A DNA stretch of 64,000 nucleotides from Fimicolochytrium jonesii (taxonomy: Eukaryota), in the NCBI RefSeq assembly GCF_025526975.1, contig NW_026515673.1, forward strand, positions 186,001 to 250,000, written 5' to 3'. Under the pieces are notes generated by a model. The model saw nothing but the letters and a program-made list of their open reading frames with translations, was not told the origin of the DNA and made no database searches. Position numbers and translations under genes: made by a program. How positions within the stretch are numbered: the stretch's first letter is position 1; each line of letters begins with the position of its first letter. Shown piece after piece: positions 3,696-54,952 of this stretch.

Positions 3696-3707
3696 AGGGA
3701 TAGCTGC

Positions 3708-3883: not shown

Positions 3884-3929
3884 GTTACCCAAGCTGAGAT
3901 TCGAACCGCCACCATCAGGGCTCATAACC

Positions 3930-20525: not shown

Positions 20526-20529
20526 GTGT

Positions 20530-21345
20530 CAGAAATGGGAGTATGTCAATTTATTTTTGAAGGTTTTGACAGTATTTGACGTTGTCCCAGGTCTTTGACA
20601 TTGCCCCAGTGCCGAAGCTGATTGCCCGACTGTAGCTCTGTCAATGGATACGCGATGTATGCATAACGATCGTCTTTCTGTATGGTAGGACGTGCAAAGT
20701 TTTGCACGGCCTCCAATTTTGAGGGTGCAATAGCCATTGTTCCTCTTCCAGGATATAGCCACAGAATTGAGCATCCATTTACGCTTGGACGGCTTAACAT
20801 AGAGTTTGTGCTCGGTGAGAACAGCCAAAACACTGTCCACATGAGCGATATGCTCCTCGGCAATCTCCGACAAGATTAAGATATCATCCAGGTAAGATAT
20901 GACATACATCATACATCTTCCCCAATATCTTATTGGGTAACCGTTGAAACGTTGCCAGTGCATTCGTTAATCCTATCGGCATAACCAAGTACTCAAAATG
21001 ATCAAACCGCGTCCAAAACGCTGTTTTGTCTATATCGCCCTTGCAAACCAAGAGGTGGTGATACGCATCTTTGATGTCCAACAAAGACTTGAACTTCCTT
21101 CCACATACCCGATCCTGCAGCTCTGCATGATTCGGTAACGGCGTACAATCCTTTATCATTGCTTTGTTCAGCCCACGATAGTCAACGCACATATGGAGAC
21201 TGCCATCGTTTGTCTTAGCAAGTAACACTGCGGCAACCCATGGGCTCTGCCAGTGCTGAACCCATCTGCGCTCAAGCATGAGAGTAACCTTCTCATTAAG
21301 CTCTTTGAGTTCAGCTTTGCTCATATGCCGTAAAGGATTAAAGTC
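20530..21345 (-). pseudogene. Gypsy-A RT fragment (copy 26330-27145)
   Basis: CVDYRGLNK, LDIKDAYH, VMPIGLTNA, YLDD; diverged paralogue of 31370-32180. Confidence 0.9.
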
Positions 21346-21349
21346 TAGT

Positions 21350-21872
21350 GTGTTGTTTACGAAGACCTCGGATGGTGTTTTGCTGACCAGAGGGGACGTT
21401 ATGGGAGTAACTGATCTCAGCTCCGGTGTTGGATAAACATACGGGATGGTGTAAGTTGTAGCGTGCTGAGGAGGTGCATGGGGGCCAGCGGCAGAGAAGT
21501 CACATATGGCGCACTAGCCGGTATAGGGCTAGCTGAGTAATTAGAGTGAGTGCTGTATACTGACGATTGGGTGAGCGGGTTTACTGAGTGGAACGTAGGT
21601 CCGCCTTGTTGAGGAGCTCGATCCTGATTCAAGAGGGAGGTAACCAAGCCTGGCAAATTGGCAATTAGGTCTTCTAGATGAAGAAACCTCTCTTCCTGCT
21701 TGATTGGAATCCATAGGAATGGGTTGATTTCGGTTTTGGGGGGTCCGGCGGTTTGGGCACATCCACATACAGGGTGATGGCATCCTTCAACTCTGCAATA
21801 GTCGGAGAAGACTCCTCCTTCCTCTTCCTTTTCATCCACAAATCCACCAGGCATTTCACGAAGACGGGTAGG
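21350..21872 (-). pseudogene. Copia-C-like gag fragment (copy 27150-27672)
   Basis: MPGGFVDEKEE...RAPQQGGPT..SVNPLTQS matches gag at 40130-40580. Confidence 0.8.
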
Positions 21873-22165
21873 TGTGATGTGGACTACCTTCCACACGGGT
21901 TGTTTAACTGATGTTCGTATACAATAACTACTTTGCTGTAAGGTATTGTAGACGGACTGGGTGTTCGTCGGCTCTGCTATGCGATATGTAGTAAAAGAAC
22001 TACTTGTTGTGCATAGGACCGCGCGACGAGCACTGTTAAAGTACCCGTGAGGTTGGAGTCCACTGGAGAACACTGTTTGGGACATGTCTCGCACACCTGG
22101 CAAGACATGTCTTGCTGACATGTCGTTCTCCAATAAGACCAGACACTCCACATTACACCCCCCCC
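21873..22165 (-). repeat. Gypsy-A 3' LTR (21873-22157, 285 bp) with G8 polypurine tract (copy 27673-27965)
   Basis: TGTAATGTG...CACATCACA termini preceded by GGGGGGGG on the minus strand. Confidence 0.88.
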
Positions 22166-22354
22166 AGATTCTACAACGCGAACCTGCCCAGCAAGCTCAA
22201 GCAGAGTAGAATATGAAGGTGTCCGGGATCGCACCCAGCGCAATCCTTAATGGTCCTTGTCGTCGTCGGTCCAAATAACCATGCAAAAAAGCTATGGCTT
22301 TTTGGCAGAAAGCCATGGCTTTTTCGCTGAAAGCCATGGTTCGCCAACTGGACG

Positions 22355-25300
22355 TGTAATGTGTGTTGGGTTGTCCGGTCTTATTGGAGAACGACATGTC
22401 AGTGAAAGACCTATCGCTGTCTTGGTGGAAGGCCTTCCGACCTGTCAGTGAAAGGCCTTTCGACCTGTCAGTGAAAGGCCTTTCGACCTGTCAGTGAAAG
22501 GCCTCTCCTAAGCACTCAGCCTTACGCCCTTCACGCTCAGACAGTGTTCTCCAGTGGACCCCGACCACATGGGTACTATAACAGTGCTTGTCGCGAGTTC
22601 CTATTCATAACAAGTAGTTCTCTTACTACATACCGATTTGCAGCGCTGGCGAACACCCAGTCCGTCTACAATACCTTACAGCAAAGTAATACGAACATCA
22701 GTTATACAACCCGTGTGGAAGGTAGTCCACATCACATGGTAGCACCACTCGTTTGAACAAAACAAGCTTCCTAGTAGTAAACACGTCGGCAACTTCAGCA
22801 TCTCGAAATTGCGGACGTAGCAATCGTCACAGAACGTCGATACAACACTTCTAGACGATTCAAATAGCCTTCAGGACGTCCAGGACAACGTCCGTCGCAA
22901 CTCCTAAGCTGTTAGGGTTCTTCTTGATCCTCTCAAAGAGCTCTCTAAACTGATAGCTTCAGATCCTGTCTAGGATCAATGTAGCCAAACCCCGCCGACA
23001 TCGGACAGATTTTGGGGATTTTTTGCTCAAAAGAGGGGAAATCTATGCCCAAATTTTGGTTACTGCACACGGCATATACCTGATTCAAGAACCTAGTTGT
23101 TTGTGTGTATTTGCTCGAGGTACTGAGCTATACAACATCAACGGAGTACTTCTGTCCGCATTCTGGACGTATTCGTCTTTGTTTGAGGTTATTCGACCTG
23201 AAAACGAGATTACACTGGCCAGAAGGTCGTCATGAGTAGGTCAACGGGTAGTACAGTTAACAGGAGTGAGGAAACTACTCCTGGAGGTACAGCTGTTATT
23301 ACTGAGATCGTTGCGAAGCCGGAAATGTCGGTTGACGAACCTTGTGTTGAAGTTTGCCTTCCTCGTCCTCCTCAAACGACGGGACCTGTTCCAATGGAGG
23401 GTATCCAGGTCGGTGGACCTCCTCCATCTCCTGCTGGTAACCCGCACGCTACGGCTATGTTGACGATCTCTGTCGAGGAGTTCAACGCCCGAATTAATGC
23501 TGCTCGAGCAGAAGTTCGCGATCAACATGCCGAGGAACATCAGGCTTGACAGGATCGTTTGCGATCTACGTTGGAGCGTGACTCCGCGGTGCGCCATGAT
23601 GTGCTGCAGGATGGGTCGGTGCATCTGTTCTATATCGAGCAGGGTAGACATCATGGTACATGGATCTCACAGCATCCGTTCAATGGCAAACGGCGTGAGG
23701 CCGCTTTCGTTGACACGTTTTTGCAGAAGCATACGGCCTTCATGGTTACTTTTGGTCTTCCGATTGACGACTTTACGTACATGCAGAAGGTCTTGAGCTC
23801 GCTTGAAGGCGACGCACGTACCTGGTTTGACACCGCATGCAGGCTTGACATGCGGAAAGAGGATTTTGAGACGGCTTTCAAACTAGCCTTCTATCCTACA
23901 AACGCGAAAACAAACGCGCTCAATGCTCTGCACCGTATGACTTTTCATAAGTCGATGGACTCATATGTGACGGAGTTCAAACGTATCATTGCCGAGGCAC
24001 AGCGCAACCTGGAGGTTATCACTCCTGACAATTTGAATAACCTGTTCCTTCGTGGTCTTACTCACAATAAGACCAATACCGTCGGCTATGAGATTGCCCA
24101 GTCGTTGTTGCATACGATGGTCGATTATAGGGAGCAACACCCTCTGCTCGCATTTCCATTGATTTGTTTGATGGATCGTGCGCTTAGTTCGTTTGCTGTA
24201 CGTCGCCTCGCCGATAAGGGCACCGACGCAAACGATAAAGCAGTTGCTTCTGGTAGTAGCGCCTAAACGTGCTAATGTCTCTTCTGCCACGGGTACCGCG
24301 GGCAAGAAGGGGGGGAAAGCTAAGAAGGCGGAAGCTGCTAAACCTTACGCACGCCCAGACCTCTCGCACATGAAGTGCTTCGATTGTGGCGAGATGGGTC
24401 ATCGTGCGCGAGATTGTCCTAAGAAGAAGGATAAGAAATCCGACGAGGCTAAGGATAAGCCGCATTGAGATGCTGGTCAGAAAAAGGGTTTTCAGTAGAG
24501 ACGTTTAATAAAGACACCGTTTATTTGTCTCATTGTGCAATGGTGTCCATTGAAGAGGAACTTGAGGCTATACGCCCTGAGTCCGCTGATGGTAGACTGG
24601 TTGATTGTAGCAATACGTCTGCTGCGGGGGCGCGCCTGTGCCGGCCAGACGAGACTGAAACCGTTTTGAAGACTAGGCCTGAAGCACTGCAACTGCAACC
24701 TGATGCGTTGATCGCACGATGTGCATTTGTAGTTCATGGCAAGTAGAATGGCAGGTTTTGTCGTATTCTGATCGATACGGGATGCACAACACTGATGGTA
24801 CGTCAGGGATGGGGTGTCAAAACATGGTTTCCAAACCTATAACCCTAAAATGCCCATTGATGTTGCCTGGGGCGACGACAGCCATACATTCAACCCCAAC
24901 AAGTCATTTTGTGGCGATCTACAGTTGTGGGGAGATGGACGACACTATTCCAGAGAACAGCTTCCATTTGTGGTCGCTCCTCTGCGGGTAGATGTTATTC
25001 TCGGATTGCCATGGATCTATATGCTTGACGATGTTTGTTTCGAGCACATAGAAGATGAAATTCCTGTTCTACGATTTCGTGCGGATGAAGTTGAACATAC
25101 CCTGGTTGCCAGACCAGTAACTAGGAAGTGGGAATCCCAGTCGTCCTGTAATGCGGCCGATCTGCGGTTTTTTGACATCAGAAAAAAGTCTAAACGATTC
25201 AAGGCGGTGATGCCTGAACGAGAAGACTCGAGTGTAGGAGTTGTAACTTATCAGAAGTTGACTCGCTTATCTCGAAAAAAGGTGTATGGGAAGTGTTACA

Positions 25301-25521
25301 TAGCGTTCGCTATGGACATAGAAGCTGCAGTGAATGCGTCACCAGCTTATGTCCCCGCAGATGAGCGCAATCGCGCCGAACCAGAGCCAGAGGTTCAAAT
25401 TAGCGAAGCTACGGGACAGAAGGTTGATTTGGGCGTGCCATTGGATCACCTTCTTTATCCAATGTTAGAGAAGTACATGGATAGTTTGTTTGTTGAGCAC
25501 GCAGAGTTGCCGCCCGATCGA
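22355..25521 (+). mobile_element. Gypsy-A 5' part: LTR 22355-22736, PBS, gag, protease; truncated by the duplication junction
   Basis: TG...CA LTR, PBS TGGTAGCACC at 22737, gag LEGDARTWF, knuckle CFDCGEMGHRARDC, protease ILIDTGC. Confidence 0.9.
22432..22504 (+). repeat. 23-bp tandem repeat (CCTTTCGACCTGTCAGTGAAAGG) x ~3 inside the LTR (copy 28232-28304)
   Basis: Read directly; absent from the 285-bp LTR variants. Confidence 0.85.
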
Positions 25522-28500
25522 TTAGAGCATCGTCTTGCCACCATAATATCCAGGTGCTTTGAATGGAGTCCTTGTTCTTGAAGGGGGTTGGGAGTATGAG
25601 TTTGGGTGCGAAAGATCGGGTCGGTAATATCCAACAAAGGTTGACTACAAAACAATACAACGGAGTTATTCAATACTACTCTCAGCTGTTCTTACTAGAT
25701 TCCTGATCAAGCAAGTCCTCTGCGACGTCAGCAAAGTACAAGCCACAAGACTTGGGGCCGTCTTGTCTAAGCTCTCAGTGTCTGTGAGCTTGCCTTGAAA
25801 AGTCCGAAAGGAACTTGAAAAAGTCGTCAGGAGTAGAGAAGTAGCTCTGTTGTGGGTTGGTGTGTTCTGCGTATCGTACAAAATTCAAGGCGAAACAGTC
25901 AGGCTTCTATACACATTTTTGTAGGCTACAGAATTTTGTCAAAGTCCAAACTCTCTACTATATGTCTCTAGAAGAATCAGCTACATCAAGGGATTCTCTT
26001 TTCCTGCAGCAGTCTACGTCGTTTTCGCCTTTTCCATTCGCAATTTCTACGCTGATACAGTCTTATCGCTAATCTTTTCTGTGGTTTTTCTTCAACGTTT
26101 GGCATATACGGCCACTGGAATTGGTTTTCTTGTTTCGCAGTTGATTTTTTCAGCGTTTCGGGCATTGTGAGAGCTTCCGGTTGGTTGAGAGTCACGTCTG
26201 GGGCGCTTTCATGTGTGAGATCTTTACCTACGCCTACATTTTTCTCATGTCAGTCGTATCCGAGGACAAAACATCGTTGTGAGGGCAGGTCTCGGTAAAG
26301 GCAGGTGTGTTAGGTTATTGTCAGAGTGTCAGAAATGGGAGTATGTCAATTTATTTTTGAAGGTTTTGACAGTATTTGACGTTGTCCCAGGTCTTTGACA
26401 TTGCCCCAGTGCCGAAGCTGATTGCCCGACTGTAGCTCTGTCAATGGATACGCGATGTATGCATAACGATCGTCTTTCTGTATGGTAGGACGTGCAAAGT
26501 TTTGCACGGCCTCCAATTTTGAGGGTGCAATAGCCATTGTTCCTCTTCCAGGATATAGCCACAGAATTGAGCATCCATTTACGCTTGGACGGCTTAACAT
26601 AGAGTTTGTGCTCGGTGAGAACAGCCAAAACACTGTCCACATGAGCGATATGCTCCTCGGCAATCTCCGACAAGATTAAGATATCATCCAGGTAAGATAT
26701 GACATACATCATACATCTTCCCCAATATCTTATTGGGTAACCGTTGAAACGTTGCCAGTGCATTCGTTAATCCTATCGGCATAACCAAGTACTCAAAATG
26801 ATCAAACCGCGTCCAAAACGCTGTTTTGTCTATATCGCCCTTGCAAACCAAGAGGTGGTGATACGCATCTTTGATGTCCAACAAAGACTTGAACTTCCTT
26901 CCACATACCCGATCCTGCAGCTCTGCATGATTCGGTAACGGCGTACAATCCTTTATCATTGCTTTGTTCAGCCCACGATAGTCAACGCACATATGGAGAC
27001 TGCCATCGTTTGTCTTAGCAAGTAACACTGCGGCAACCCATGGGCTCTGCCAGTGCTGAACCCATCTGCGCTCAAGCATGAGAGTAACCTTCTCATTAAG
27101 CTCTTTGAGTTCAGCTTTGCTCATATGCCGTAAAGGATTAAAGTCTAGTGTGTTGTTTACGAAGACCTCGGATGGTGTTTTGCTGACCAGAGGGGACGTT
27201 ATGGGAGTAACTGATCTCAGCTCCGGTGTTGGATAAACATACGGGATGGTGTAAGTTGTAGCGTGCTGAGGAGGTGCATGGGGGCCAGCGGCAGAGAAGT
27301 CACATATGGCGCACTAGCCGGTATAGGGCTAGCTGAGTAATTAGAGTGAGTGCTGTATACTGACGATTGGGTGAGCGGGTTTACTGAGTGGAACGTAGGT
27401 CCGCCTTGTTGAGGAGCTCGATCCTGATTCAAGAGGGAGGTAACCAAGCCTGGCAAATTGGCAATTAGGTCTTCTAGATGAAGAAACCTCTCTTCCTGCT
27501 TGATTGGAATCCATAGGAATGGGTTGATTTCGGTTTTGGGGGGTCCGGCGGTTTGGGCACATCCACATACAGGGTGATGGCATCCTTCAACTCTGCAATA
27601 GTCGGAGAAGACTCCTCCTTCCTCTTCCTTTTCATCCACAAATCCACCAGGCATTTCACGAAGACGGGTAGGTGTGATGTGGACTACCTTCCACACGGGT
27701 TGTTTAACTGATGTTCGTATACAATAACTACTTTGCTGTAAGGTATTGTAGACGGACTGGGTGTTCGTCGGCTCTGCTATGCGATATGTAGTAAAAGAAC
27801 TACTTGTTGTGCATAGGACCGCGCGACGAGCACTGTTAAAGTACCCGTGAGGTTGGAGTCCACTGGAGAACACTGTTTGGGACATGTCTCGCACACCTGG
27901 CAAGACATGTCTTGCTGACATGTCGTTCTCCAATAAGACCAGACACTCCACATTACACCCCCCCCAGATTCTACAACGCGAACCTGCCCAGCAAGCTCAA
28001 GCAGAGTAGAATATGAAGGTGTCCGGGATCGCACCCAGCGCAATCCTTAATGGTCCTTGTCGTCGTCGGTCCAAATAACCATGCAAAAAAGCTATGGCTT
28101 TTTGGCAGAAAGCCATGGCTTTTTCGCTGAAAGCCATGGTTCGCCAACTGGACGTGTAATGTGTGTTGGGTTGTCCGGTCTTATTGGAGAACGACATGTC
28201 AGTGAAAGACCTATCGCTGTCTTGGTGGAAGGCCTTCCGACCTGTCAGTGAAAGGCCTTTCGACCTGTCAGTGAAAGGCCTTTCGACCTGTCAGTGAAAG
28301 GCCTCTCCTAAGCACTCAGCCTTACGCCCTTCACGCTCAGACAGTGTTCTCCAGTGGACCCCGACCACATGGGTACTATAACAGTGCTTGTCGCGAGTTC
28401 CTATTCATAACAAGTAGTTCTCTTACTACATACCGATTTGCAGCGCTGGCGAACACCCAGTCCGTCTACAATACCTTACAGCAAAGTAATACGAACATCA

Positions 28501-31500
28501 GTTATACAACCCGTGTGGAAGGTAGTCCACATCACATGGTAGCACCACTCGTTTGAACAAAACAAGCTTCCTAGTAGTAAACACGTCGGCAACTTCAGCA
28601 TCTCGAAATTGCGGACGTAGCAATCGTCACAGAACGTCGATACAACACTTCTAGACGATTCAAATAGCCTTCAGGACGTCCAGGACAACGTCCGTCGCAA
28701 CTCCTAAGCTGTTAGGGTTCTTCTTGATCCTCTCAAAGAGCTCTCTAAACTGATAGCTTCAGATCCTGTCTAGGATCAATGTAGCCAAACCCCGCCGACA
28801 TCGGACAGATTTTGGGGATTTTTTGCTCAAAAGAGGGGAAATCTATGCCCAAATTTTGGTTACTGCACACGGCATATACCTGATTCAAGAACCTAGTTGT
28901 TTGTGTGTATTTGCTCGAGGTACTGAGCTATACAACATCAACGGAGTACTTCTGTCCGCATTCTGGACGTATTCGTCTTTGTTTGAGGTTATTCGACCTG
29001 AAAACGAGATTACACTGGCCAGAAGGTCGTCATGAGTAGGTCAACGGGTAGTACAGTTAACAGGAGTGAGGAAACTACTCCTGGAGGTACAGCTGTTATT
29101 ACTGAGATCGTTGCGAAGCCGGAAATGTCGGTTGACGAACCTTGTGTTGAAGTTTGCCTTCCTCGTCCTCCTCAAACGACGGGACCTGTTCCAATGGAGG
29201 GTATCCAGGTCGGTGGACCTCCTCCATCTCCTGCTGGTAACCCGCACGCTACGGCTATGTTGACGATCTCTGTCGAGGAGTTCAACGCCCGAATTAATGC
29301 TGCTCGAGCAGAAGTTCGCGATCAACATGCCGAGGAACATCAGGCTTGACAGGATCGTTTGCGATCTACGTTGGAGCGTGACTCCGCGGTGCGCCATGAT
29401 GTGCTGCAGGATGGGTCGGTGCATCTGTTCTATATCGAGCAGGGTAGACATCATGGTACATGGATCTCACAGCATCCGTTCAATGGCAAACGGCGTGAGG
29501 CCGCTTTCGTTGACACGTTTTTGCAGAAGCATACGGCCTTCATGGTTACTTTTGGTCTTCCGATTGACGACTTTACGTACATGCAGAAGGTCTTGAGCTC
29601 GCTTGAAGGCGACGCACGTACCTGGTTTGACACCGCATGCAGGCTTGACATGCGGAAAGAGGATTTTGAGACGGCTTTCAAACTAGCCTTCTATCCTACA
29701 AACGCGAAAACAAACGCGCTCAATGCTCTGCACCGTATGACTTTTCATAAGTCGATGGACTCATATGTGACGGAGTTCAAACGTATCATTGCCGAGGCAC
29801 AGCGCAACCTGGAGGTTATCACTCCTGACAATTTGAATAACCTGTTCCTTCGTGGTCTTACTCACAATAAGACCAATACCGTCGGCTATGAGATTGCCCA
29901 GTCGTTGTTGCATACGATGGTCGATTATAGGGAGCAACACCCTCTGCTCGCATTTCCATTGATTTGTTTGATGGATCGTGCGCTTAGTTCGTTTGCTGTA
30001 CGTCGCCTCGCCGATAAGGGCACCGACGCAAACGATAAAGCAGTTGCTTCTGGTAGTAGCGCCTAAACGTGCTAATGTCTCTTCTGCCACGGGTACCGCG
30101 GGCAAGAAGGGGGGGAAAGCTAAGAAGGCGGAAGCTGCTAAACCTTACGCACGCCCAGACCTCTCGCACATGAAGTGCTTCGATTGTGGCGAGATGGGTC
30201 ATCGTGCGCGAGATTGTCCTAAGAAGAAGGATAAGAAATCCGACGAGGCTAAGGATAAGCCGCGTTGAGATGCTGGTCAGAAAAAGGGTTTTCAGTAGAG
30301 ACGTTTAATAAAGACACCGTTTATTTGTCTCATTGTGCAATGGTGTCCATTGAAGAGGAACTTGAGGCTATACGCCCTGAGTCCGCTGATGGTAGACTGG
30401 TTGATTGTAGCAATACGTCTGCTGCGGGGGCGCGCCTGTGCCGGCCAGACGAGACTGAAACCGTTTTGAAGACTAGGCCTGAAGCACTGCAACTGCAACC
30501 TGATGCGTTGATCGCACGATGTGCATTTGTAGTTCATGGCAAGTAGAATGGCAGGTTTTGTCGTATTCTGATCGATACGGGATGCACAACACTGATGGTA
30601 CGTCAGGGATGGGGTGTCAAAACATGGTTTCCAAACCTATAACCCTAAAATGCCCATTGATGTTGCCTGGGGCGACGACAGCCATACATTCAACCCCAAC
30701 AAGTCATTTTGTGGCGATCTACAGTTGTGGGGAGATGGACGACACTATTCCAGAGAACAGCTTCCATTTGTGGTCGCTCCTCTGCGGGTAGATGTTATTC
30801 TCGGATTGCCATGGATCTATATGCTTGACGATGTTTGTTTCGAGCACATAGAAGATGAAATTCCTGTTCTACGATTTCGTGCGGATGAAGTTGAACATAC
30901 CCTGGTTGCCAGACCAGTAACTAGGAAGTGGGAATCCCAGTCGTCCTGTAATGCGGCCGATCTGCGGTTTTTTGACATCAGAAAAAAGTCTAAACGATTC
31001 AAGGCGGTGATGCCTGAACGAGAAGACTCGAGTGTAGGAGTTGTAACTTATCAGAAGTTGACTCGCTTATCTCGAAAAAAGGTGTATGGGAAGTGTTACA
31101 TAGCGTTCGCTATGGACATAGAAGCTGCAGTGAATGCGTCACCAGCTTATGTCCCCGCAGATGAGCGCAATCGCGCCGAACCAGAGCCAGAGGTTCAAAT
31201 TAGCGAAGCTACGGGACAGAAGGTTGATTTGGGCGTGCCATTGGATCACCTTCTTTATCCAATGTTAGAGAAGTACATGGATAGTTTGTTTGTTGAGCAC
31301 GCAGAGTTGCCGCCCGATCGAAGTGAAGATAACTTCCATATCGAACTGGAGCCTGGTACGAAACCAGTCTTTAATCCTTTACGGCATATGAGCAAAGCCG
31401 AACTCAAAGAGCTGAATGAGAAGGTTACCTCTCATGCTCGAGCGCGGTTGGATTCAACACTCGCAGAGCCCGTGGGGCGCGGCAGTGTTATTCGCCAAGA

Positions 31501-33795: not shown

Positions 33796-34698
33796 TGCGG
33801 CATCCACAATAACTGCCGAAGAGTTGGCGCATCTTTACTTCCGAGAGGTATGGCGCCATACAGGTACTGTAGCTGTGATCGTCGGAGATCAAGATCCCCG
33901 CTACCTGGCAGATTTCTGGAAGGTGTTTCAATCGTTGTTGGGCTCTAAGCAGAGCTTGAGCACGGCACGACACCAACAGACGGACGGAAAGGTCGAACAG
34001 TGTATCTCTATCTTGAAGAAGATGATTAAACCGTACCTTAATGTAACGGGAGACGATTGGGTTGACAAACTGCCGATGTTGGAGTTTGCCTACAACTGTA
34101 CGCAGAACAGCACTGGATACTGCCCTTTCGAGGTTGATTTGGGTAGAATTCCACAGGCGCCGATGCATTGGCAAGTTGACGCAAAGGTGTTGCAACGTAT
34201 GGACGATACGTCGATCCCATTCTTGCATAAGTCACGACGTGAGCTCATCAAACAGATGGAGAAGCGTGCTGAGGCATACCGATCCATTGAACTCATAGTG
34301 CAGCAGAAACTTCGGGAAGCCCAGGACAAACAAGCAAAGTATCACGATCGTGGACGTCGTGTACAGAGCTTTTGTCCAGGAGATAAAGTCCTGTTGAAGA
34401 GCGACGGGATAACGATCCCTTCTTTCAATAAGAAGCCGCTCAAGTTTAGACAGAGCTGGCTAGGACCCTTCATCGTGAAGAAGGAAGGACCACACCCGGA
34501 AACGTACAAGTTAGAGCTGCCAGCTTTCATGGGCGCTTTATACCCGGTCTTCCATACGTGTGAAAGGGGTCGATTATTCCCTGAGATAGGTCCTAAATTG
34601 GGTTGTTCGCGGGTGGAGATGATCTACTCGTGGAGAGTGCAAGGTAAAAGGTAGAGACCAACTAGATCCCTATTCTCACCACACAAGTAGACACGCTT

Positions 34699-34945
34699 AC
34701 TTAGCAGTAGTCGGCGGAGGAAGCAGATGACTGAGCGAACTCTATGTAGTGTGCAATGCTGTACTGTGAAGTATGTATTGTCTTGTGTAGAAAAGTCTAA
34801 AGTGTAAAGAGGACGCGAGGTCTGAAGGGGAAGAAACGAGTGAAGTCCCGTACGCAGAAGCGTGGCAAAAGCGGGAGGGGAGTCACGTGAGGAAATAAAC
34901 TATGGGAACTCTAACCGGGGACTTGGGAGGATGATACCCCCAACA
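34699..34945 (-). repeat. Copia-C 3' LTR
   Basis: Direct repeat of 40935-41181 (roughly 19 mismatches by eye); adjacent PPT. Confidence 0.92.
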
Positions 34946-35209
34946 CCCCCACTCAAACTCACGAGTCTATCTAAGTGAAAGATAGATCGAAACAATGAGT
35001 ACAATGGTGCGGCCGTACGCGAAAAACGGGCGGACGTTGGGTGAATAGCTATGACTAAAAATGAAAGAAATGAAAGAGTAAAATGAAAGAAGGGGGGAAA
35101 CGCCGCGAGTATAAAACAAGAGACAGCTGTCAGTTGCCCTAGAGAGGTAAGACCAACGTTCCCCATACTCAACTACCGTATCCCAGACTACCACACGATA
35201 CGCAAAACA

Positions 35210-35845
35210 ATGGCCAACGGAGGCAAGAACGGCGGGAGTGGCAAGAAGAAGCAAATGGCCCGTAAGACGGTGAGACCAGCAGCCCCTCCAGCTGCACCTC
35301 CTCCGGGACCCTCACGACCGACAACGCGCTCTACGCGTGCATCGTCCGCAGCGTCCGCAAGCGACTCTTCGATGTCGAAAGCCCGAGTTAGAGAAGCTCT
35401 TCGATTGGCGACGGAGGTATCGAAGTTGAGGTACCGCAAGGATAACCATGAGAACCTCGCGAAGCACCTGGCGTTTATGAAGGCGAAACTGGATCGATCG
35501 AAGCGAAAGAAGGGGTCGTTCGAAGCATTGACGGAGGAGGCAGACTACCTTGGATGTAAGGCAGTCTCGGAGTCGCGATATAAGGCAAAAGGCGGCATAT
35601 CAAAAGAAAAGATGAAAGATGCAAAGCGCCGCAGTGATGCGGTCAAGAGACGGGAGCGAGACAAGATGATGAAGCGACTCCAGTACTTGCGAAAGCACAT
35701 GGATGATTCGTCTTCAAGTGAGGATGGAGACGGGGACGGAAATGGCGGGGGAGGTGGTCCAGGGGGTCCGCCTGGTGGAGGCGAAGCCGGAGCCGGTGGA
35801 GGCCCCGGTGCCAGGGCAGCGGCAGCTATCAAGGTGGCGGGTTAA
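35210..35845 (+). CDS. Antisense accessory ORF of copia-C, 211 aa, basic, H3-tail-like KQMARKT motif
   Basis: Uninterrupted ATG-TAA ORF between pol stop and PPT; start context AAAACAATGG; TATAAAA at ~35110. Confidence 0.7.
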   Translation: MANGGKNGGSGKKKQMARKTVRPAAPPAAPPPGPSRPTTRSTRASSAASASDSSMSKARVREALRLATEVSKLRYRKDNHENLAKHLAFMKAKLDRSKRKKGSFEALTEEADYLGCKAVSESRYKAKGGISKEKMKDAKRRSDAVKRRERDKMMKRLQYLRKHMDDSSSSEDGDGDGNGGGGGPGGPPGGGEAGAGGGPGARAAAAIKVAG

Positions 35846-35937
35846 GGTGCCGAAGTCGTATGTAGTGCCCAGAAGCCGTCCCGGTATGGGTGTTCCATAT
35901 GTCTCATTCGGACGTAGTCGTCGCCCGCTGTCTATTG

Positions 35938-38900
35938 CTAGCGACACGTCCTTCTTGAATTGCTTGAATGTGTCTCGGGAGGAAAGGGCTTCGTAAAGTA
36001 ATCAGCCAGTTGTTCCTGCCTCGCGGTGTTGGGGAGTACGACGTCTTTCTTCGCCACGCCATCGCGTAGCTTGTGGTAGCGTACGTCGATGTGTTTGGAG
36101 CGTTGCGGAATAGCCGAGTTGGCAATCTCGCGGGCGCTCTGATTGTCGATGTGGAGTGGCGTAGGGTCCTTGATGTTGCCGTATTCGTCGGCGAAGACCT
36201 CTGCGGTGATCGAGCGGAGCCGGATGACCTCGTTGTAACCGAGCGGTGTGGCAATATACTCAGCTTCCGTGGAGCTGAGAGCTACGCACTTCTGCTTGGT
36301 GCTTTTCCAGTAGATAAGCTGGCCGTTGAAGAAGCTGGCGATGCCCGTGGTAGATTTGCGGTCGTTGACATCGTCTGCGTAGGATGCGTCGGTATAGACG
36401 CGAAGTCCAGCTTGATCTGAATGACCGGACTTGTAGGTAAGCTCGAAGGTGCGGGTACCTTTCAGGTAGCGCATGATGCGAAGTACATCATTCCAGTTGG
36501 CTTGGGTAGGAGCTGAGACTTGACGTGCGACGAAGCCGACGGCAGTTGAAATATCCCAGCGCCAGGTAATGGATGCCCACGTGAGGGCCCCCACTGCTTC
36601 CTGGTAGACAAGCTCGCTATGAAAAGGGGGGCTTGCGGAGGCTGGTCGGGTACGCGCAGAGACGGCGCACGGCGTAGAGACCGCGGTAGCGTTTTGTTGT
36701 CCAAATCGTTCGAGTAAACCGTCAATATAGGTAACATTGCTGATTTTGAGTTGGTTCCCTGACGGCGAGAGCTGGTAATCGAAGAACAGACCTAGGCAGT
36801 TCTTGATGGGACTGAGATCCGTACAGTTGAAATGAGAACATAGTTCACCTTTCACTTGCTTGACGTGTACGGGAAAGCAGCAGGCGATGAAATGGTCCAC
36901 ATAGATAAGGAGCATCTGGAGAGCGTCCAGAGTGCGCGTCGTTGTCGCGTAGCGATAGAAGACGCAAGGGCAGTTCTTTAACGGGGTAAAGCCAAGAGAA
37001 CTGAGGGTTTCACAAAGAGTACGGTACCAGAGAAGCGGAGATTGCTTCAGACCGTATAGAGCTTTGCGTAGGAGGTATACCCAGTCTGCGCGCGGTTTCT
37101 GCGGATCTTTGTAGCCTTGAAATTGCTCAACATAGACGGGTCCGTCGATATCGCTGCGTAAGAACGCGTTGGGGACGTCAAGTTGATGGATTTCCATACC
37201 AAGAGAGACGGCAATGGAGAGGAATAGGCGAAGAACTGACATGGGTAGGGTTGGTGCGTAGGTGTTGTTATAATCAATACTCTTGGATTGACGAAAACCT
37301 TGAACTACACGGTGGCCCTTGAATTTCTTGAAAGTACCGTCCGGATTGAAGATTTGACGAAGTACCCAAGTACTACCGAGTACGCGCTGATTTTGCGGAC
37401 GGGGTACGAGCTCCCAAGTTCCGTTATCAACTAGAGCTTGGAACTCTTTATCAGCTGCGAGCTTGAAGTCAGCTGTTTGAGGGGAGGCCATTGCTTGTCG
37501 CCAGGTCATAGTGACGGATTGAGGAGTGTCTTTGGTACGCGTGTTGAAGGCGTTTGAGAGGGCATCAATAGTTCGGGCGTTGAAAGCGTCTGGACGAGAC
37601 TCCCAGATATCCAATGCTTCAGTCTCAATGAGATCAGAGCGTGGTTGCCAGGTAGGGGTAGTAAAACCAACCCACTTGACGAGGTATTCCTTTTGGACGT
37701 TCTTGCTGCGGCGTTGACGTTCAGAAAGGATGTGTTCGATAGGGAACTCCTCTTGCGAGGTGGGAGCATCTTTCAGAAGATCTAGGAGAGCAGGATCTTG
37801 ACGAAGGTGCTCAGGGAGTCCAGTAGATTTGTCGAAGCGAACATCACGTGAGACGGCGACAGTGTCGCGAACTGGATCCCAGACATAGTAACCTTTGGTG
37901 CCTTGTTGGTGACCATAGCCCACTAGGTACATCTTGGTAGCACGATTTGCCATCTTTTCCCGGCCCTTGGGTGGAACAACAGTGTGCGTGAGACATCCGA
38001 GCTTGCGCAGATGCGCGATGCTCGGGCGGCGACCGGTAAGGAATTCGGAGCGCGATTTGGCATCCGAGGATGCAACTGAATGCGGGTAGAGGTTGTGCAG
38101 GTAAGAGACAGCCTCCAGGATGTACAGCCAGAGCTTGCGGGGAAGGTGAGTGTCTGGGAAGATGGTGCGTACGCGGTCCAGCAACGTCCGATTGAGGCGC
38201 TCTGCTTTTCCGTTTTGTTGACTAGAATACGCAACAGTAGACTCATGGGTCATCCCATTGTTGTGTAGGTACAACGTGAGCGCGCCAGTGTATTCTCCTC
38301 CGCTATCCGTATGTAGGATCTTGAGGGAGACGCCAGTTTGATTCTTGAGCCACTTATGAAAGATCATAAACCTTGCGGTAATAGTGGATGCCTCCTTGTC
38401 CTTGATGGAGTAGGTACGGGCGAAATCGGAGCCGTTGTCCAGAAACGCGAGACTGTAGCGCTCTCCGTTGATGCCGTAGATCCGAAATGGACCTTGTAAA
38501 TCGCTGTGAATCAGCTCGCCGGGTTTGTGTGGCGGGGATGTCGATTTAGGGAAGGTGAGGCGGGTAGCTTTGCCGAGAGCGCATGGATCGCAGCGTGCGC
38601 CGGAGTCCGGCGTAGCCCCCACTGAAGGCCAATCCTCTACTATCTTAGGCATAACCGGGAGAATGTGGTTTCCAGGGTGTCCAAGACGTTGATGCAGAAG
38701 TTGGGGGGTTATGGAAGCGACCAGTGCATGTGCATTGGGCTTGTAGGTAGTAACCCGTCCTTCTAAACAGTACGCGTCGCCTTTGCGGATCACCATCATG
38801 AGTAGGTGTCGGTCGGTATTGAACGTGACGACGTCGGTGGGGTGAAAGGAGACGGTAACGCCGTTATCAGTGCATTCAGCAACAGATATAAGCGGCTGGG

Positions 38901-39335
38901 CAGCACTGGGAACCAATACAACATCGCAAAGAGCGAGAACGTTGCCGCCGGACGTAGGTTGGATAAGTACGGTACCCTTCTTTTGAGAGGTAATGGTAGT
39001 CGAATCCACGAGTCCAATAAGGCGTTGGTAGTCTTGAAGAGAAGATGGATCTAGATCCTCAATATAGGGGGTCATATGATCCGTACAACCGGAATCCACG
39101 TTCGCCTTGAAGAGGCGGACGTCGTGGTTGGCTGGTTGGACTTGAACGTGCATGGCATAAGCCATGGAGGCTGCAGCGGGTGCGTCCTGCTTGGTTTTCA
39201 TGTTCTTGTCCATGATATCCTTGACAGCTTTGTAAGTAATGCAGTTTTCCGACTTGTGGCCGTCCCTCTGGCAGTATTTGCACTGGGGAGGCTTCTTGGT
39301 TGCGTCAGAAGACGAGCTTGGGTAGAGGGAGTGCC
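35938..39335 (-). CDS. Copia-C pol: Zn knuckle, protease, integrase, chromodomain, RT, RNase H
   Basis: CKYCQRDGHKSENC in frame upstream of the 1091-aa ORF; VDSGCTDHMT; HQRLGHP; HSDLQGP, HTDSGGEY, QNGKAERLNR; EYLVKWVGF; ALYGLKQSP; YVDH (mutated YVDD); YTDASY, SSTEAEY, SKHIDVRYH. Confidence 0.93.
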
Positions 39336-40845
39336 TCTAGAGCCGCCAGTCTTGGATTTGTTCTTCCTCTTCTGAGGTAGAGTAGAAGTAACGTGGGGAG
39401 CGGATGCGCCCGACTGAGGTGTACTCGGGGTCTTCTCGTTGAGCTGGGCGGCTATACAAATCGCGGCTTCTTGAGAAGGACTAAGTCTATCGTCGTACTG
39501 AGCCTGAGCAGTGATCAGGGTACTAAGATTCTTAGGAAGGGCTTGAAGAAAATCGGCACAGAGCACGTATTCCGGGAACCCGGGGAGTTGTCCAGCCAAA
39601 AGGTTGAAGTGGGCGACAAATTCGGTTAAACCTTGATGGTTAATTGACTTGGGCTTCAGAGCGCGCAGTCTGTGAAGAACTTGCGGCAGATTAGTCCCGG
39701 GAATGAAGCGCCTCAACATCGCGGAGCGTAATCCGAGTCGCGGGGGCAGTCCATAGACGTCTTGAATATCATGCCAGGAAATTATGGAGGAGCGCTCGTT
39801 TTCAGGAAGGCTTTTCCACCACTGGAGAGCTGGTCCAGTGAGCGCGTTGATAACGAAGTCTACGCATTCGGAAGGCGAAATCATCTCGTACTTCATAATC
39901 ACGTCAATGTGATCTAGGAACCCTTGAAGCTTGATAACATTGGGGTCGCCTTTGTAGGTGCCGAGTTTACTAAGGATAGTGTTGATGAAGACCTTGGAAG
40001 CTGATTTGCCGGCCGTAGGGGGTGTTACGGGAGTAACAGATCTCACAGATGCACTTTCGTGTGGAATTTTAGCGAAAGGAGGGCTTTGAGAACGAGGTTG
40101 AAAGTAAGGATGTCGTTCCGGGGCTTTGTAAGCGTATGGGACGGAGTAGGCCATAGCGCGCTGACGGGGCGCATGGGGTGCCGGCGACACAGAGGTCATG
40201 TATGGCATGTTTGCCTGGATAGGGCTAGTCGAATAATGAGAACGAGTGCTGTTCACAGGCGACTGAGTGAGCGGGTTCACGGAGGGGACAGTAGGTCCGC
40301 CCTGTTGAGGCGCTCGGCCCAAATTCAAGAACGAGGTAACCAATCCAGTCAGAGTGGCTGTTTGATCCTTCATTTGACGCATCTCCTCTTCCTGCTTGAC
40401 AGGTGTAGGTTCTCGCTGAATGGAATCCATCAGGAAGGGGTCGGTTCCGGTATGTCCGCGTGATTCAGGCGCATCCACATATGGTGTGGTTGCGTCTTTC
40501 CATTCTGCAATAGTAGCAGAGAGATCCTCTTTCCTCTTCTTGATCCACAAATTCACCAGGCATTTTGTAAGGCGGGGTAGGTGTTGGTTCACTGCGTAAG
40601 TCGGCATGACGGGCTACGCCTTGATTAAGCGGAGTACGTGAGTCAATGCCAGAGCGCTGATTAATAGATTCAGAACTCTTAACAGGGGGTTGTTGAACGT
40701 TCTTTCCTCCTCCTCTAGTAGCCGCAGGTAGTGGACCCAGGAGAGCTCCTCCTTGGGACCGCGTGTGGTGAGCGGAGGGCTTGCCGGCTGTCACTGCAGC
40801 TGCGTAGCCCTTCTGAGGTTGGGTTGTTGAATCCTTAGGTGGCAT
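39290..40845 (-). CDS. Copia-C gag, frameshifted near 40480 and near 39320
   Basis: ORFs 40465..40845 and 39198..40607; capsid-like LTGPALQWW and FLQALPKNL. Confidence 0.75.
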
Positions 40846-40934
40846 GGTGCTTTCTAAGAGAGCGGTGACTGGAGACCGTGAGTTCTTTATCCTGGAACGT
40901 CCGCTAGTTGCGGGCGGAGCCAGGGCTCATAACC

Positions 40935-41181
40935 ACTTAGCAGTAGTCGGCAGAGGAAGCAGATGACTGAGCAAACTCTATGTTGTGTGAGATGTAGTAC
41001 TGTGAAGAATGTATTGTCCTGTGTAGAAAAGTCTAAAGTGTAAAGAGGACGCGAGGTCCGAAGGGGAAGAAAAGAGTGAAGTCCCGTACGCGGAAGCGTG
41101 GCGTAAGCGGGAGGGGAGTCACGTGAGGAAATAAACTACGGGAAACCTAACCGGGGACTCGGGAGGATGATACCTCCAACA
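40935..41181 (-). repeat. Copia-C 5' LTR
   Basis: Followed by the PBS on the minus strand. Confidence 0.92.
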
Positions 41182-48912: not shown

Positions 48913-51310
48913 CGGTTCCCTTATCGGCGAGACGACGTACAGCAAACGAACTAAGCTCACGATCCATCAAACAAATCAATGGAACGGCGAGCAGAGGGTG
49001 TTGCTCCCTAGAATCGACCATCGTATGCAACAACGACTGGGCGATCTCATAGCCGACGGTATTGGTCTTATCCCGAGTAAGACCACAAAGGAACAGGTTA
49101 TTCAAATTGTCAGGAGTGATAACCTCCAGGTTGCGCTGTGCCTCGGCAACGATACGTTTGAACTCCGTCACATATGAGTCCATCGACTTATGAAAAGTCA
49201 TTCGGTGCAGAGCGTTGAGCGCGTTTGTTTTTGCGTTCGTAGGATAAAAGGCTAACTTGAAAGCCGTCTCAAAATCCTCTTTCCGCACGTCAAGCCTGCA
49301 TGCGGTGTTGAACCAGGTACGTGCGTCGCCTTCAAGCGAGCTCGAGACCTTCTGCATGTACTTAAAGTCATCAATCAGAAGACCAAAAGTAACCATGAAG
49401 TCCGTATGCTTCTGCAAAACCGTGTCAACAAAAGCGGCCTCACGCCGTTTGCCATTAAATAGATGCTGCGAGATCCATGTACCATGGTGTCTACGCTGCT
49501 CGATATAGAACGGATCCACCGACCCATCCTGCAGCACATCACGGCGCATTGCGGAGTCACGCTCCAACGTAGCTTGCAAACGATCCTGTTGAGCCTGATG
49601 TTCCTCGGCATGTTGATCGCGAACTTCGGCTCGAGCGGCAGCGGCAGCAGCCTTCATTCGGGCATTGAGCTCCCTGACGGAGATCGTCAACATAGCCGTA
49701 GCGGGCGAGTTACCAGCAGGAGGTGGAGGAGGTCCACCGACCTGGATACCCTCCATCGGAACAGGTCCCGTCGTTCAAGGAGAAAGAGGAAGGCAAACTT
49801 CAACACGAGGTCCGTCAACCGACATTTTGAGCTCCTCAACGATCTCAGCAATAACAGCTGTACCCCCAGGAGTAGTGTCCTCACTCCTGGTAACTGTACT
49901 ACCCGTTGACGTACTCATGACGACCTTCTGGCCAGTGTAATCTCGTTTTCAGGTTGAATAACCTCAAACAACGACGACTACGTCCAGAATGCGGACAGAA
50001 GTACTCCGTTGATGTTGTATAGCTCAGTACCTCAAGCAAATACACACAAACAACTACGTTTTCGAATCAGGTATATGCCTTATGCAATAACCAAAATTCG
50101 GGCATAGATTTTCCCTCTTTTGAGCGAAAAATCCCCAAAATCCCCCGTGTCCAATGTCGGCAGGTTTTGGCTGCGTTGATCCTGAAATGGATCAGAAGCG
50201 ATCAGTTTAAAGAAACCTTTGAGAGGATCAAGAAGAACCCTAACGGCTCAGCTCTGTCCCAAAACTGAAATACTTCTCCTATCCGCCCGTTTTCGCTTAA
50301 GTATCAAATTACCAACAAAGGCGATGACGGATTACTCGTTTTCCAGTGATTCAAAAATCCCAAAACGTTCAGCTAAATTCAAGGTAATTCTCGGGGTCGG
50401 GAAAAACCTGATCGAGGGTCGTTTCGGTCAAAACTGGGATAGTTTTGCTATACAGAGGTTATGATGGCGACAATTTAGCGCGTTTTTCGATATCTCCGTA
50501 TCCGTAGGTCGAATCTCTTCGAAACTTTCACAAGTCTTCAAGCCCAGTGTGCTCTACAAGGTTTCCGAGTTTGAAGGGGATCAAATTACTGGGGTAGATT
50601 TCCGATCCGCAAACGGGTTACTAATTGGCTACTAGTAAACACGCGTTTATGTTGACTACGTGTCGACCGTTGAACGTATACCTTCAAGGGGTTGATATAC
50701 CGGAAGAGTAAGGTGTGGATGGCAAACTGTGAATTACGGTGGTTTGTTTAACCACCCAGGTACAAAAAGCAAGGTGGTTGCGACGTATCGGTTGTTCCAC
50801 TAGGTAAATAACCTAGAGGTCGGCGCTTTTCGACTATAGCGCACTAGGGGCTTCAGGAGTTGCGACGGACGTTGTCCTGGAGGTCCTGAAGGCCATTTGA
50901 ATCGTCTAGAAGTGTTGTATTGACATTCTGTGACGATTGCTACGTCCGCAATTTTGAGATGCTGAAGTTGCCGACGTGTTTATCTACTAGGAAGCTCGTT
51001 TTGCTCGAAACGAGTGGTGCTACCATGTGATGTGGACTACCTTCCACGCGGGTTGTTTAACTGATGTTCGTATACAATAACTACTTTGCTGTAAGGTATT
51101 GTAGACCGACTGGGTGTTCGTCGGCTCTGCTATGCGATATGTAGTAAAAGAACTACTTGTTGTGCATAGGAATGCGCGACGAGCACTGTTAAAGGACCCA
51201 TGAGGTCGGAGTCCATTGGAGAACACTGTCTGGGACATGTCTCGCACACCTGGCGAGACATGTCTCGCTGACCTGTCGTTCTCCAATAAGACCAGACACT
51301 CCACATTACA
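48913..51310 (-). mobile_element. Gypsy-A 5' part: LTR 51026-51310, PBS, leader, gag
   Basis: 285-bp TG...CA LTR, TGGTAGCACC PBS at 51016-51025, gag ORF 48821..49756 paralogous to 23232-24266. Confidence 0.92.
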
Positions 51311-51910
51311 GTAGGTGATGGTTCACTTCGTTGTTGCACTTGACGGGGTACGCCTTGAATAGGCGGAGTACGTGAGTCAGTGCCAGAGAGCCAATTAGAA
51401 GATTCAGAGCTCCTAAGAGCTGGTTGAACTTTTTTTCCTCCTCCTCTGGTTGCTGGCGGTAGTGAGTCCAGGAGTGCTCTCCCTTGGGAGCGCATATTTG
51501 GGGTAGACGGCTTGCCGGCTGCTAAGGCAGCAGAGCATGCTTTCTGAGTTTGGTTTGTTGAATCCTTTGGCTGCATGGTGCTTTCTGAAAGAACCGGCGA
51601 GGGGACACCGAGCTCTCCATTCTAGATTCGTACGCAAATAGCAGGCGAAGCCAGGGCTCATAACCTGTTAGCGGTAGTTGGCAAAGGAATATGGATAGAG
51701 AACGGAACCTGTGTATGGGGGACGAAGCCCTATATTGTATGAAGTTATACAGTCTTGTCTGAAGACAGAAAGGAGGACGCGAGGTCCAGGGTAGTAAGAA
51801 AAGGGAGAAGTCATGTACCCAGAAGCATGGCGTAAGCGGGAGTGAAGTCACGTGAGGAAATAAACAATGGGAACGCTAACCGGGGACTCGGGAGGATGAT
51901 ACCTCCAACA
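51311..51910 (-). mobile_element. Copia-C relative: 5' LTR 51666-51910, PBS, gag start
   Basis: TGTTGGAGG...CTAACA LTR, GGTTATGAGCCCT, MQPKDSTNQTQK versus MPPKDSTTQPQK at 40845. Confidence 0.88.
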
Positions 51911-51964
51911 GTCTCCTCTGACATTACACTGAGCATGCACCGAATACAAAAAGGATCTCATCCA

Positions 51965-52851: not shown

Positions 52852-54952
52852 TCATTTGCCAGAAGCAATCACGAAGTCAACCCAATCTTTCCACCTCCGG
52901 TCCCACACAATTTTCGCCGTTCGCTGCTCCGCACGAGTCAGGCCCGAGAAGGTGATTCCGTTGAGGGAAAGTTGCTTCAATGAGCGAAGATCAAGCGACT
53001 CGAATGCCATGTACACCTGGTAGTAGTCCGGCGTCACACCTTCATAGCCTAGGTTGATAAAGTGACGATTTCCATTACATCTTTCATGTGCTTATGAAGC
53101 ACTTTGTAGGCAAGGCCGCGGCGCTCATGTACTTACCATAGAGCATAGGATCGTCCGGAGCCAACGTCACTTGTACACCGCTTAGTAGCAGGTCAATGAC
53201 TGGATGCTCTCGCAAATCCTTGACGTAGCCCAACATTTGGTTGCTAAGGAAAACTGGTCAGTAAGCCTGCTCGCCGATCTTCCGATCTTCGGACCGTGGC
53301 CTTGAGTTGAGAATAAAAAAGGTGTGTCGTTACCTAATCGGGGCGACTTCGACTGCTATATTCTGGTCGATGACGCGCTTGATGAGACCGGGGTGTCGGG
53401 ACAAAGCAATACCGTGCCCGATGCGTTTTGTTCCGAGAAGCAACGCATCAACAAGATTCGCATCTGGCGCGGGCCCACAGCGTTGAGTCTCGCCGGCATG
53501 CAGGACAAGGGGAAGTGAGACGCCCGCCCGTTTGGCGGTGCGCTGGCCTTGTACGAGGGTTTGAAGCACTTCGTCCAGCGAACGAGTCTGGTAGAGAGAA
53601 GAGGTTGATTTCACCCCACAAGCGACAGGTCGCGGCGACCGACCCCGTTGATTCGCCGCTTCACATAACAATACGTTTCTAGACTTACCACTTCATGTCC
53701 AACCAAATCGAGCGCGACGATTTGATCAGGGTGGGATTTGCGATATTGAATCGCTTCGCCTATGGATGCAGCAATCACGCTATTGTCCAGCGATCGGACC
53801 TCTTGCCACACAAACCTTAAATCCTGAAAGTCGGGGTGGGTCTGCTTGAACTTTGCGACGATTCGGCGTACGCTGCGCAGCACAGCCGAGAATGGCTTGG
53901 TGTCACCGTTTGCAAGGTACGTTTCCCATTTGAACATGCGGATCTCGACCTGGGCATTGAGATGGGTTAGAGTGGGCAGGAGTCGAGCGGTGCGGAGTTA
54001 CGTACATAAAGTATGCCGTCTTCATAGAACTGCTGAATCAGTCGCCCTATGTATGCTTCGAACATGGGGTCATAGCGGAGAATGGACCCTAGCATCTCAA
54101 ACGACATGAGGAATTGGGCCCACGCAGCATCGTCGTTCTTGAATATGCTAGGGACGAAAGATTACCTTCCATATCAGCGCTATTCTCGAAACTCGTAAAC
54201 TTACTCCCGAATAACACTATTTTGAAGCTCCAAATGACTGTCATAGGCGTTGGCGCCACCGGGAAAAGCATCACGAACTTCTTTGCATGTTGCCCATCCC
54301 TCATCTGGGGGCAACCCTGAGGATGAACTGGCGAACTTGAAGAAAGCGAACTTCTCTTTCCTTGCCACCGCTTGATCAAATGTTGGGACCGTTTTCTCCT
54401 CATATCTATGGATATACCGAATGAGCAATGAATAGCAGACAGCAGAAGCGCCCAAATCGATGCGCTTTCGATATGTTACCTCACGAAGCAGGTGCTTCCG
54501 TGCTCTCCTTCCACCGTGGTGTTTATCAACCACTTCATGTCAACCATCGCCTCCAAATGCCCATGTAAGATCCCGCCTTTTGGCATTTGCCTTAGCAGCG
54601 TGTAGAGTTCGGATTCCTCCATCAATGGCTTGGCGACGGGGAACCGCAGGTGAGGGGGAAACGTGCCTGAGACCTGGAACGCGAGGGACTCCGTTGAACG
54701 GATTCTGGCCAGAACTTCATCCGCTTTTTGCTCCTTCTCCGACAATATGATACTTCGATCAAAGCGTGTTTCCAGATCCAGCGAGGAGAGCGTGCTGCGG
54801 GACGAGGACTCCACAGAGTCCACAATGTTGGCAATTGACCGGGTTGTCAGCAATGGCCAAATGAAGTATAGGGCAACAGCGGCAGCCACACTCTTTTCCC
54901 ACGGGCTCCACCGCGCGGGCGAGCGGTATATCCGCGCCCATTGGGTTGCCAT
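52852..54952 (-). CDS. ADA2: Adenosine deaminase, ADA2/CECR1/ADGF subfamily, multi-exon
   Basis: MPKGGILHGH, DGILY|VEIR, DLVGHE, LHAGET, NLVDALLLGTKRIGHG, EVAPISNQ, PDDP across GT-AG introns; N-terminal hydrophobic segment. Confidence 0.92.

Follow-up and report, generated by a model that had tools for sequence, protein, structure and literature searches.

In chromoviruses, which belong to the Ty3/gypsy superfamily, a chromodomain of the integrase guides integration into heterochromatin; this domain is reportedly the subject of a 2008 study by Gao et al. The long terminal repeat (LTR) retrotransposons Grande of maize, RIRE2 of rice, Retand, and Boty of Botrytis are also Ty3/gypsy elements. 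They supply the named examples (gene23 in Grande and brtn in Boty) of aORF-3R, a known class of antisense open reading frames (ORFs) at the 3' position, between pol and the 3' LTR, whose function is open and whose products are basic, probably nuclear, and without homologue, with a probable promoter of their own (Vicient and Casacuberta 2020, PMC7264820). Copia elements with a chromodomain at the integrase C terminus are described from diatoms as CoDi-A and CoDi-I (Llorens et al. 2009, PMC2774666; Ustyantsev et al. 2017, PMC5348765; bioRxiv 10.1101/2024.05.11.593484). Proteins that imitate histones are well known from viruses and, among host proteins, from a few that act on chromatin; mimics of histone H3 lysine 9 (H3K9) include G9a K185 and GLP K205 (PMC9768651) as well as SARS-CoV-2 ORF8, with ARKS, and influenza NS1 (PMC13165374). 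Element-encoded counter-silencing is represented by VANC of the VANDAL transposons, which acts via sequence-specific DNA binding and not histone mimicry (PMC5735166, PMC10398659). Here we describe a Ty1/copia element on the minus strand of a 64-kb window of Fimicolochytrium jonesii DNA (contig NW_026515673.1, positions 186,001 to 250,000), spanning 34699 to 41181 of that window, which combines a chromodomain in pol with an antisense ORF encoding a candidate H3K9 mimic, KQMARKT.

A sequence-only reading of the window had proposed an LTR-bounded element with copia domain order and a chromodomain in pol, and our analysis bore this out. The two LTRs are identical at 228 of 247 bases (92%; 7.7% difference), and a primer-binding site (PBS) and a polypurine tract (PPT) accompany them, as in copia elements. 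Pfam domains in pol run in the order protease, GAG-pre-integrase, rve, SH3-like, Chromo, RVT_2, and RNase H, which is the copia order of protease, integrase, reverse transcriptase (RT), and RNase H with an RVT_2-type RT. Pfam Chromo matched pol amino acids 533 to 581 with an E value of 2.6e-4 and 21.3 bits, under its cut-off of 25.1. A PDB sequence search returned 60 chromodomain-type matches at E values up to 1, the best being CBX8 (4e-5), with CDY, Chp1, and HP1 among the others. In an alignment to CBX8, CDY, and Chp1, all three residues of the aromatic cage are present (F/W/F); compared with HP1-type domains, the loop behind the third cage aromatic lacks two residues. Because of these PDB matches and the F/W/F cage, the chromodomain is by sequence comparison genuine despite its sub-cut-off Pfam score.

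A full-length pol search identified one close relative, the ENA protein P0026, which is 46% identical over 99% of pol; the remaining pol matches listed were 26 to 37% identical. P0026 matches Pfam Chromo with an E value of 1.2e-7 and has the cage Y/W/Y, and none of the other proteins in a set of 145 carries a chromodomain of this kind. In an RT-RNase H tree built from 39 of 139 sequences, window pol and P0026 grouped on a long branch with support of 1.0. As the chromodomain is also kept in P0026, these comparisons make it a trait of the lineage. In both proteins the cage-intact chromodomain stands behind the integrase, at its C terminus, as in CoDi-A and CoDi-I.

The region between pol and the 3' LTR carries an ORF on the opposite strand, the position that characterizes aORF-3R, and this ORF occupies 636 of the 992 bp. 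Its length speaks for a gene, as 28 of 2000 dinucleotide shuffles of this region gave an ATG ORF as long. It contains KQMARKT at precisely the coordinates that the sequence-only reading had given. The core of its upstream TATA box, TATAAA, is unique in the 3' region, and TATAWAW occurs five times on the plus strand of the whole window. The context of the antisense ATG is A-rich, with A in position -3 and G in position +4. A single-sequence model of the product (mean predicted local distance difference test score [pLDDT], 62; predicted template modeling score, 0.21) gave a predicted disordered tail (residues 1 to 55), three helices (residues 56 to 168), and an acidic and then Gly-rich end. Searches with the ORF returned sub-threshold noise only from Pfam and NCBIfam, coiled-coil and Gly noise only from PDB sequences, and, with this low-confidence model, 0 matches from Foldseek. 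Judged by these features, the ORF likely encodes a nuclear accessory protein.

We aligned KQMARKT to H3 residues K4 to S10, with K19 of the ORF product standing for K9. Five of the seven residues are identical (K, Q, A, R, and K, of which the Q falls on H3 Q5), a sixth exchanges S10 for T, and M replaces T6. With K at -5 and Q at -4, the motif resembles H3 more closely than ARK[ST] by itself would. The A-R-K-S/T core lies in the predicted disordered N-terminal tail, an accessible segment, and no further ARK[ST] occurs in any of the window's six frames, where 4.2 were expected. When the antisense ORF protein was shuffled, ARK[ST] alone arose in 4.7% of shuffles, whereas KQxARK[ST] arose at a frequency of 4e-5 in 200,000 shuffles, with 0.006 expected per 64-kb window in six frames, a rarity that is overstated because the pattern was chosen after being seen. 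Apart from Q5, the H3 positions used for the alignment are those of PMC8303541 and PMC3248561. SUV39H1 reads K at -5 and R at -1 most (PMC8303541), and both are found in KQMARKT. Additionally, the precedent invoked by the sequence-only reading is sound: the G9a K185/T186 mimic is bound by HP1 (PMC9768651), and therefore an ARKT-type site without downstream glycines can work.

The database gene call for P0026 covers the other strand and would therefore hide an antisense homologue from protein databases. As an indirect conservation test with this one relative, we back-translated the tail of the P0026 protein and listed the residues allowed on the opposite strand. After RNase H, the P0026 frame continues for 326 amino acids, the last of which translate the PPT, like the minus frame in the window. 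In one of the three opposite frames, at 1576 to 1566, the sequence K-Q-(L/H/P/R)-A-R-K-T-V-R-P-A is allowed. This 11-mer lies near the 5' end, where it was expected, an ATG could stand 13 codons ahead of it, which is the spacing in the window, and the frame has no forced stop and a basic-acidic-Gly layout similar to that of the ORF. Q at -4, A at -2, and T at +1 are compatible, and the upstream lysines K12 and K13 are not. Shuffling allowed KQxARKTVRPA 3 times in 3000 and 0 times in 3000, and among 188,930 residues taken from real proteins it was never possible. In a likelihood test, KQMARKT scored above 150 of 150 shuffles, and in an unguided scan of all 200 ORF 12-mers, the motif window was the best of the non-Gly windows. 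Two more compatible 11-mer blocks, ORF residues 64 to 74 and 195 to 205, are collinear in the same frame; block 140 to 150 is not collinear.

With a pair hidden Markov model (pair-HMM), the whole ORF scored 10.2 bits, a value that 8 and 23 of 2196 shuffles attained, and residues 1 to 170 scored 10.3 bits, which 4 of 600 pieces of real proteins attained; these P values are exploratory because several scoring schemes were tried, of which the summed score was significant and the Viterbi score was not. KQxARK[ST] is not possible in either of the two P0026 back-translation frames that are better determined. One of these was rejected as the coding frame, having a forced stop and 35 Cys/Trp-only positions. 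These back-translations give moderate support for P0026 having this antisense gene too, which we hold to be more likely than not, and for the motif being its most conserved stretch. Of the co-occurrence in relatives that the sequence-only reading had proposed to check, this one relative shows the chromodomain with its cage and, for the motif, compatibility by back-translation.

Several results weigh against conservation of the motif or against its action as a mimic. KQxARK[ST] alone was possible in 167 of 3000 and 241 of 3000 P0026 shuffles (5.6 to 8%), three other ORF 11-mer groups are also possible in the P0026 tail, and 41 of 205 ORF 7-mers are possible somewhere in it. Smith-Waterman tests were not significant (45 and 73 of 100), the pair-HMM score with the motif removed was reached by 4 to 7 of 100 shuffles, and the unrelated protein P0001 scored 11.4 overall, owing to its Gly tail read in a different frame. 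Searches for a homologue of the ORF found none among 5,328 scored candidates from 5.8 billion proteins (best match, E value of 0.48, low complexity), among 1.84 billion representatives searched with residues 1 to 165, or in viral contigs or the Atlas, and no second copy was found in the window. About 250,000 windows were read in the scan, so chance H3-like 7-mers will occur. The substrate preferences of the enzymes are partly violated as well. SUV39H1 prefers T, S, A, or Y at -3 and a small residue at +2 (PMC8303541), positions at which the motif has M and V. DIM-5 requires R8 to G12 in vitro (PMC3248561), and the motif departs from this DIM-5/SUV39H2 substrate window, with T, V, and R at +1 to +3 and the T11 and G12 equivalents missing. 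A loose G9a-type RK motif occurs in more than 17,000 proteins (PMC10611923). Finally, the overlapping KKKQ basic patch could simply be a nuclear localization signal.

Given these caveats, we tentatively read the N-terminal KQMARKT of the antisense protein as an H3K9 mimic and a decoy for host silencing proteins. From the anatomy that we observed, we infer a course of expression, methylation, binding, and an effect on silencing that would run as follows. By analogy with chromoviruses, the chromodomain would steer integration into H3K9-methylated chromatin, where the new copy would be silenced. A copy in silent chromatin would need transcription, and a nuclear accessory protein made from the antisense promoter could relieve the silencing. 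Within the exposed tail, K19 would be a target that a host H3K9 methyltransferase of the type of SUV39H1 and G9a methylates or binds, and the tail would then occupy HP1-type chromodomains and loosen silencing of the element. The helical basic core may hold the accessory protein on nucleic acid or chromatin. More tentatively still, this fungal copia lineage may possess a self-contained read-and-decoy system: the integrase chromodomain would target H3K9-methylated chromatin, and the conserved antisense mimic would soak up methyltransferase or HP1, or bind the element's own chromodomain, leaving the element hidden yet expressed.

The main rival account, possible if somewhat doubtful to us, is that the ORF is an accessory gene of the aORF-3R kind whose product is a basic nuclear or nucleic-acid-binding protein. 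KKKQMARK would then be a localization signal, with its H3 likeness incidental and unlinked to the chromodomain. The 47 lysines and arginines among 211 residues and the pI of 10.4 are consistent with such a protein, and so are the shuffle frequency of ARK[ST] alone, the motif's departures from DIM-5 and SUV39H preferences, and the frequent occurrence of antisense ORFs, several with nuclear products (PMC7264820). It would also be in line with conservation of a basic patch in P0026. However, a localization signal could do without the Q at -4, the A at -2, and the T at +1; these are the positions at which P0026 is compatible, K12 and K13 not being so, and the 4e-5 shuffle frequency of KQxARK[ST] likewise counts against this account.

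It is unlikely, in our judgment, that the mimic is instead a ligand for the element's own chromodomain, tethering the integrase or masking the chromodomain until integration. Consistent with this idea, both modules occur in one element, apparently in P0026 too, and the mimic covers the reader-side residues K4 to S10 without the writer-side T11 and G12. Furthermore, and in favor of the decoy reading as well, ESMFold2 gave a weak pass for the chromodomain with ORF residues 4 to 36 (0.36 versus 0.07 for the best of three controls); the runs agreed in at least 88% of contacts, with a partner pLDDT of 59 to 60. In the calibration, 51 of the 78 solved pairs and 2 of the 108 mismatched ones attained the mark; at values of 0.60 or below, 5 of the 78 solved pairs pass, and all 4 passing mismatches (of 180) lie there. 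Because peptides are uncalibrated and chromodomain-H3 complexes have already been solved, the predicted complex may show likeness at most. The modeled peptide was unmethylated, and such a prediction cannot separate the element's own chromodomain from that of the host. Against a ligand role, CoDi-A and chromoviruses carry chromodomains for which the available sources report no such partner.

The least likely account makes the antisense ORF no gene but a chance open frame in the GC-rich, purine-skewed 3' spacer of a decayed element: an equally long ATG ORF came out of 1.4% of the dinucleotide shuffles of the 992-bp region, its ends are of low complexity, its third-position bases follow the strand bias of the element and not the pattern of host genes, and the databases searched hold no homologue, against which stand the TATA box and good start context, the three long predicted helices, the stop-free P0026 frame with a similar layout, and the gene call that would hide a P0026 homologue.

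Each part of this candidate mimic-and-reader pairing has a precedent. CoDi-A and CoDi-I have the same domain order, and the element is likened to them by this layout; their hosts are diatoms, whereas that of the window element is probably a fungus, and its gag scores as Ty3-type. The available text of the CoDi papers does not mention an antisense ORF or a histone mimic; the window element has the former and a candidate for the latter. The antisense ORF resembles aORF-3R in position, basic character, lack of homologues, a candidate promoter, and a probable nuclear location; no H3 motif is described in PMC7264820, and we found no sequence similarity between that class and the window ORF. With the known H3K9 mimics, its predicted product shares the A-R-K-S/T core within an exposed segment of a nonhistone protein (PMC9768651, PMC13165374). 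As judged from sequence, the candidate differs from them in being encoded by a retrotransposon beside a reader domain and in a match that reaches K4 and Q5. Chromoviruses belong to another superfamily than the window element. A transposon-encoded H3K9 mimic, or its pairing with a chromodomain, was not found in our full-text searches of the literature, though such elements may be described in subscription-only papers or Repbase, and PMC13165374, in its available text, names viral and host mimics only. The sequence-only reading had put the pairing forward as a candidate new system: copia chromodomains and antisense 3' ORFs were already described, and the combination of chromodomain and mimic is new as far as the literature found goes.

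The copy itself is, by its sequence, probably dead because its RT motif is YVDH, its gag frames are broken, its LTRs end in AAGT, and it has no target-site duplication. The relative P0026 has FVDD at the RT motif and is continuous from capsid to RNase H, whereas gag of the window element lies in two frames, out of frame with pol. The sequences flanking 34699 to 41181 do not repeat, and this copy lacks both the TG...CA ends and the target-site duplication of an intact insertion. The AAGT end is found on both LTRs (34699 to 34705 and 40935 to 40941), and a sibling LTR near 51.67 kb has CA. We rejected neutral ageing as the source of the 7.7% LTR difference, since about 4.7 new stops would be expected had pol drifted as far as the LTRs and none was seen. 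Because pol is stop-free despite the LTR divergence and the target duplication is missing, the sequence suggests that the element is a recombinant of two related copies. The PBS is presumably of the internal initiator-tRNA-Met type of Drosophila copia-like elements, and the same PBS is present in a sibling remnant at about 51.66 kb (family D20). Between an interrupted gypsy integrase and the 3' LTR, at 34560 to 34698, lies a stretch of about 140 bp beginning TGTGAAAGGGG, unique in the window, which possibly derives from the LTR of a third element.

The second gag frame is 38% identical to the N terminus of P0026. Its profile matches were Ty3_capsid (32 bits, above its cut-off) and Retrotrans_gag, and Ty3_capsid also matched P0026 gag (residues 1 to 185), below the cut-off; a copia gag profile did not match window gag at an E value of 0.1. 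A low-confidence gag model was closest to dArc1 (Z score, 9.5; root mean square deviation, 7.2; 117 residues aligned), followed by PEG10/PNMA2 (Z score, 7.2) and copia capsid (Z score, 6.0). A two-sequence gag profile gave no significant match to the gypsy elements of the window or to 145 copia gags, and a direct gypsy donor of gag was not found within the window. By profile, then, the gag of the window element and P0026 scores as Ty3/gypsy-type, and a superfamily chimera is possible.

In wider searches, viral contigs gave no locus matches with pol, alignment A2, or P0026 as the query, and diatom clusters were among the Atlas leads under 0.9 for the element. A metagenome locus search found one distant copia element, L001, 25% identical and without a comparable antisense ORF. 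On its plus strand, at 2193 to 4040, L001 has a 615-amino-acid sense ORF after RNase H that ends near a CCHC-like motif. Five distant copia fragments (L002 to L006; 24 to 29% identical to window pol) came from prokaryote assemblies; being eukaryotic-type pol pieces on short contigs of three bacterial assemblies, they are probably contamination.

The window as a whole consists of nested LTR retrotransposons and, behind them, eukaryotic host genes (54476 to 63998), including a phosphorylase kinase regulatory subunit (E value of 3.5e-39) and an adenosine-deaminase N-terminal domain. The frame at 58972 to 59709, in which no tool confirmed a family, is probably a ciliary gene resembling ZMYND10. 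By themselves, these host genes point to a flagellated opisthokont of the chytrid sort, presumably a zoosporic fungus. Sibling remnants of the element at 51130 to 51912, 21434 to 21875, and 27234 to 27675 hold the 5' LTR, PBS, and gag start at 75% identity and gag pieces at 71%, the latter joined to gypsy RT sequence; none of the three retains the 3' region. Two tandem arrays of retrotransposon fragments, one at about 3900 to 17300 (period of 4359 bp; about three units) and one at about 19700 to 31300 (period of 5800 bp; two units, with 100% identity over the stretches compared), are either real amplification or an assembly artefact. The features of the element are collected in Table 1.

Table 1. 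Features of the copia element, in window coordinates
Feature	Start	End	Strand	Remarks
5' LTR	40935	41181	-	247 bp; TGTTGG start, AAGT end instead of CA
Primer-binding site	40923	40934	-	directly behind 5' LTR
First gag frame	40465	40926	-	MPPK at 40845 is the probable start; gag goes on in a different frame
Second gag frame with capsid domain	39198	40613	-	capsid about 39429-40001
pol frame	35938	39336	-	1132 aa
CCHC in pol	39238	39282	-	
Protease in pol	38860	39111	-	
Integrase (rve) in pol	38164	38718	-	D,D,E intact
SH3-like domain in pol	37822	38037	-	
Chromodomain in pol	37594	37752	-	between integrase and RT; cage F531/W555/F558
RT (RVT_2) in pol	36667	37506	-	YVDH
RNase H in pol	35977	36405	-	
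Antisense accessory ORF	35210	35845	+	211 aa, pI 10.4
KQMARKT	35249	35269	+	
TATAAAA box, candidate antisense promoter	35110	35116	+	100 bp upstream of antisense ATG
Polypurine tract	34946	34955	-	abuts 3' LTR
3' LTR	34699	34945	-	247 bp

If the reading of KQMARKT as an H3K9 mimic is true, it would provide the first concrete function for the antisense accessory ORFs of LTR retrotransposons, and it would account for the escape from silencing of an element whose own targets lie in silent chromatin.

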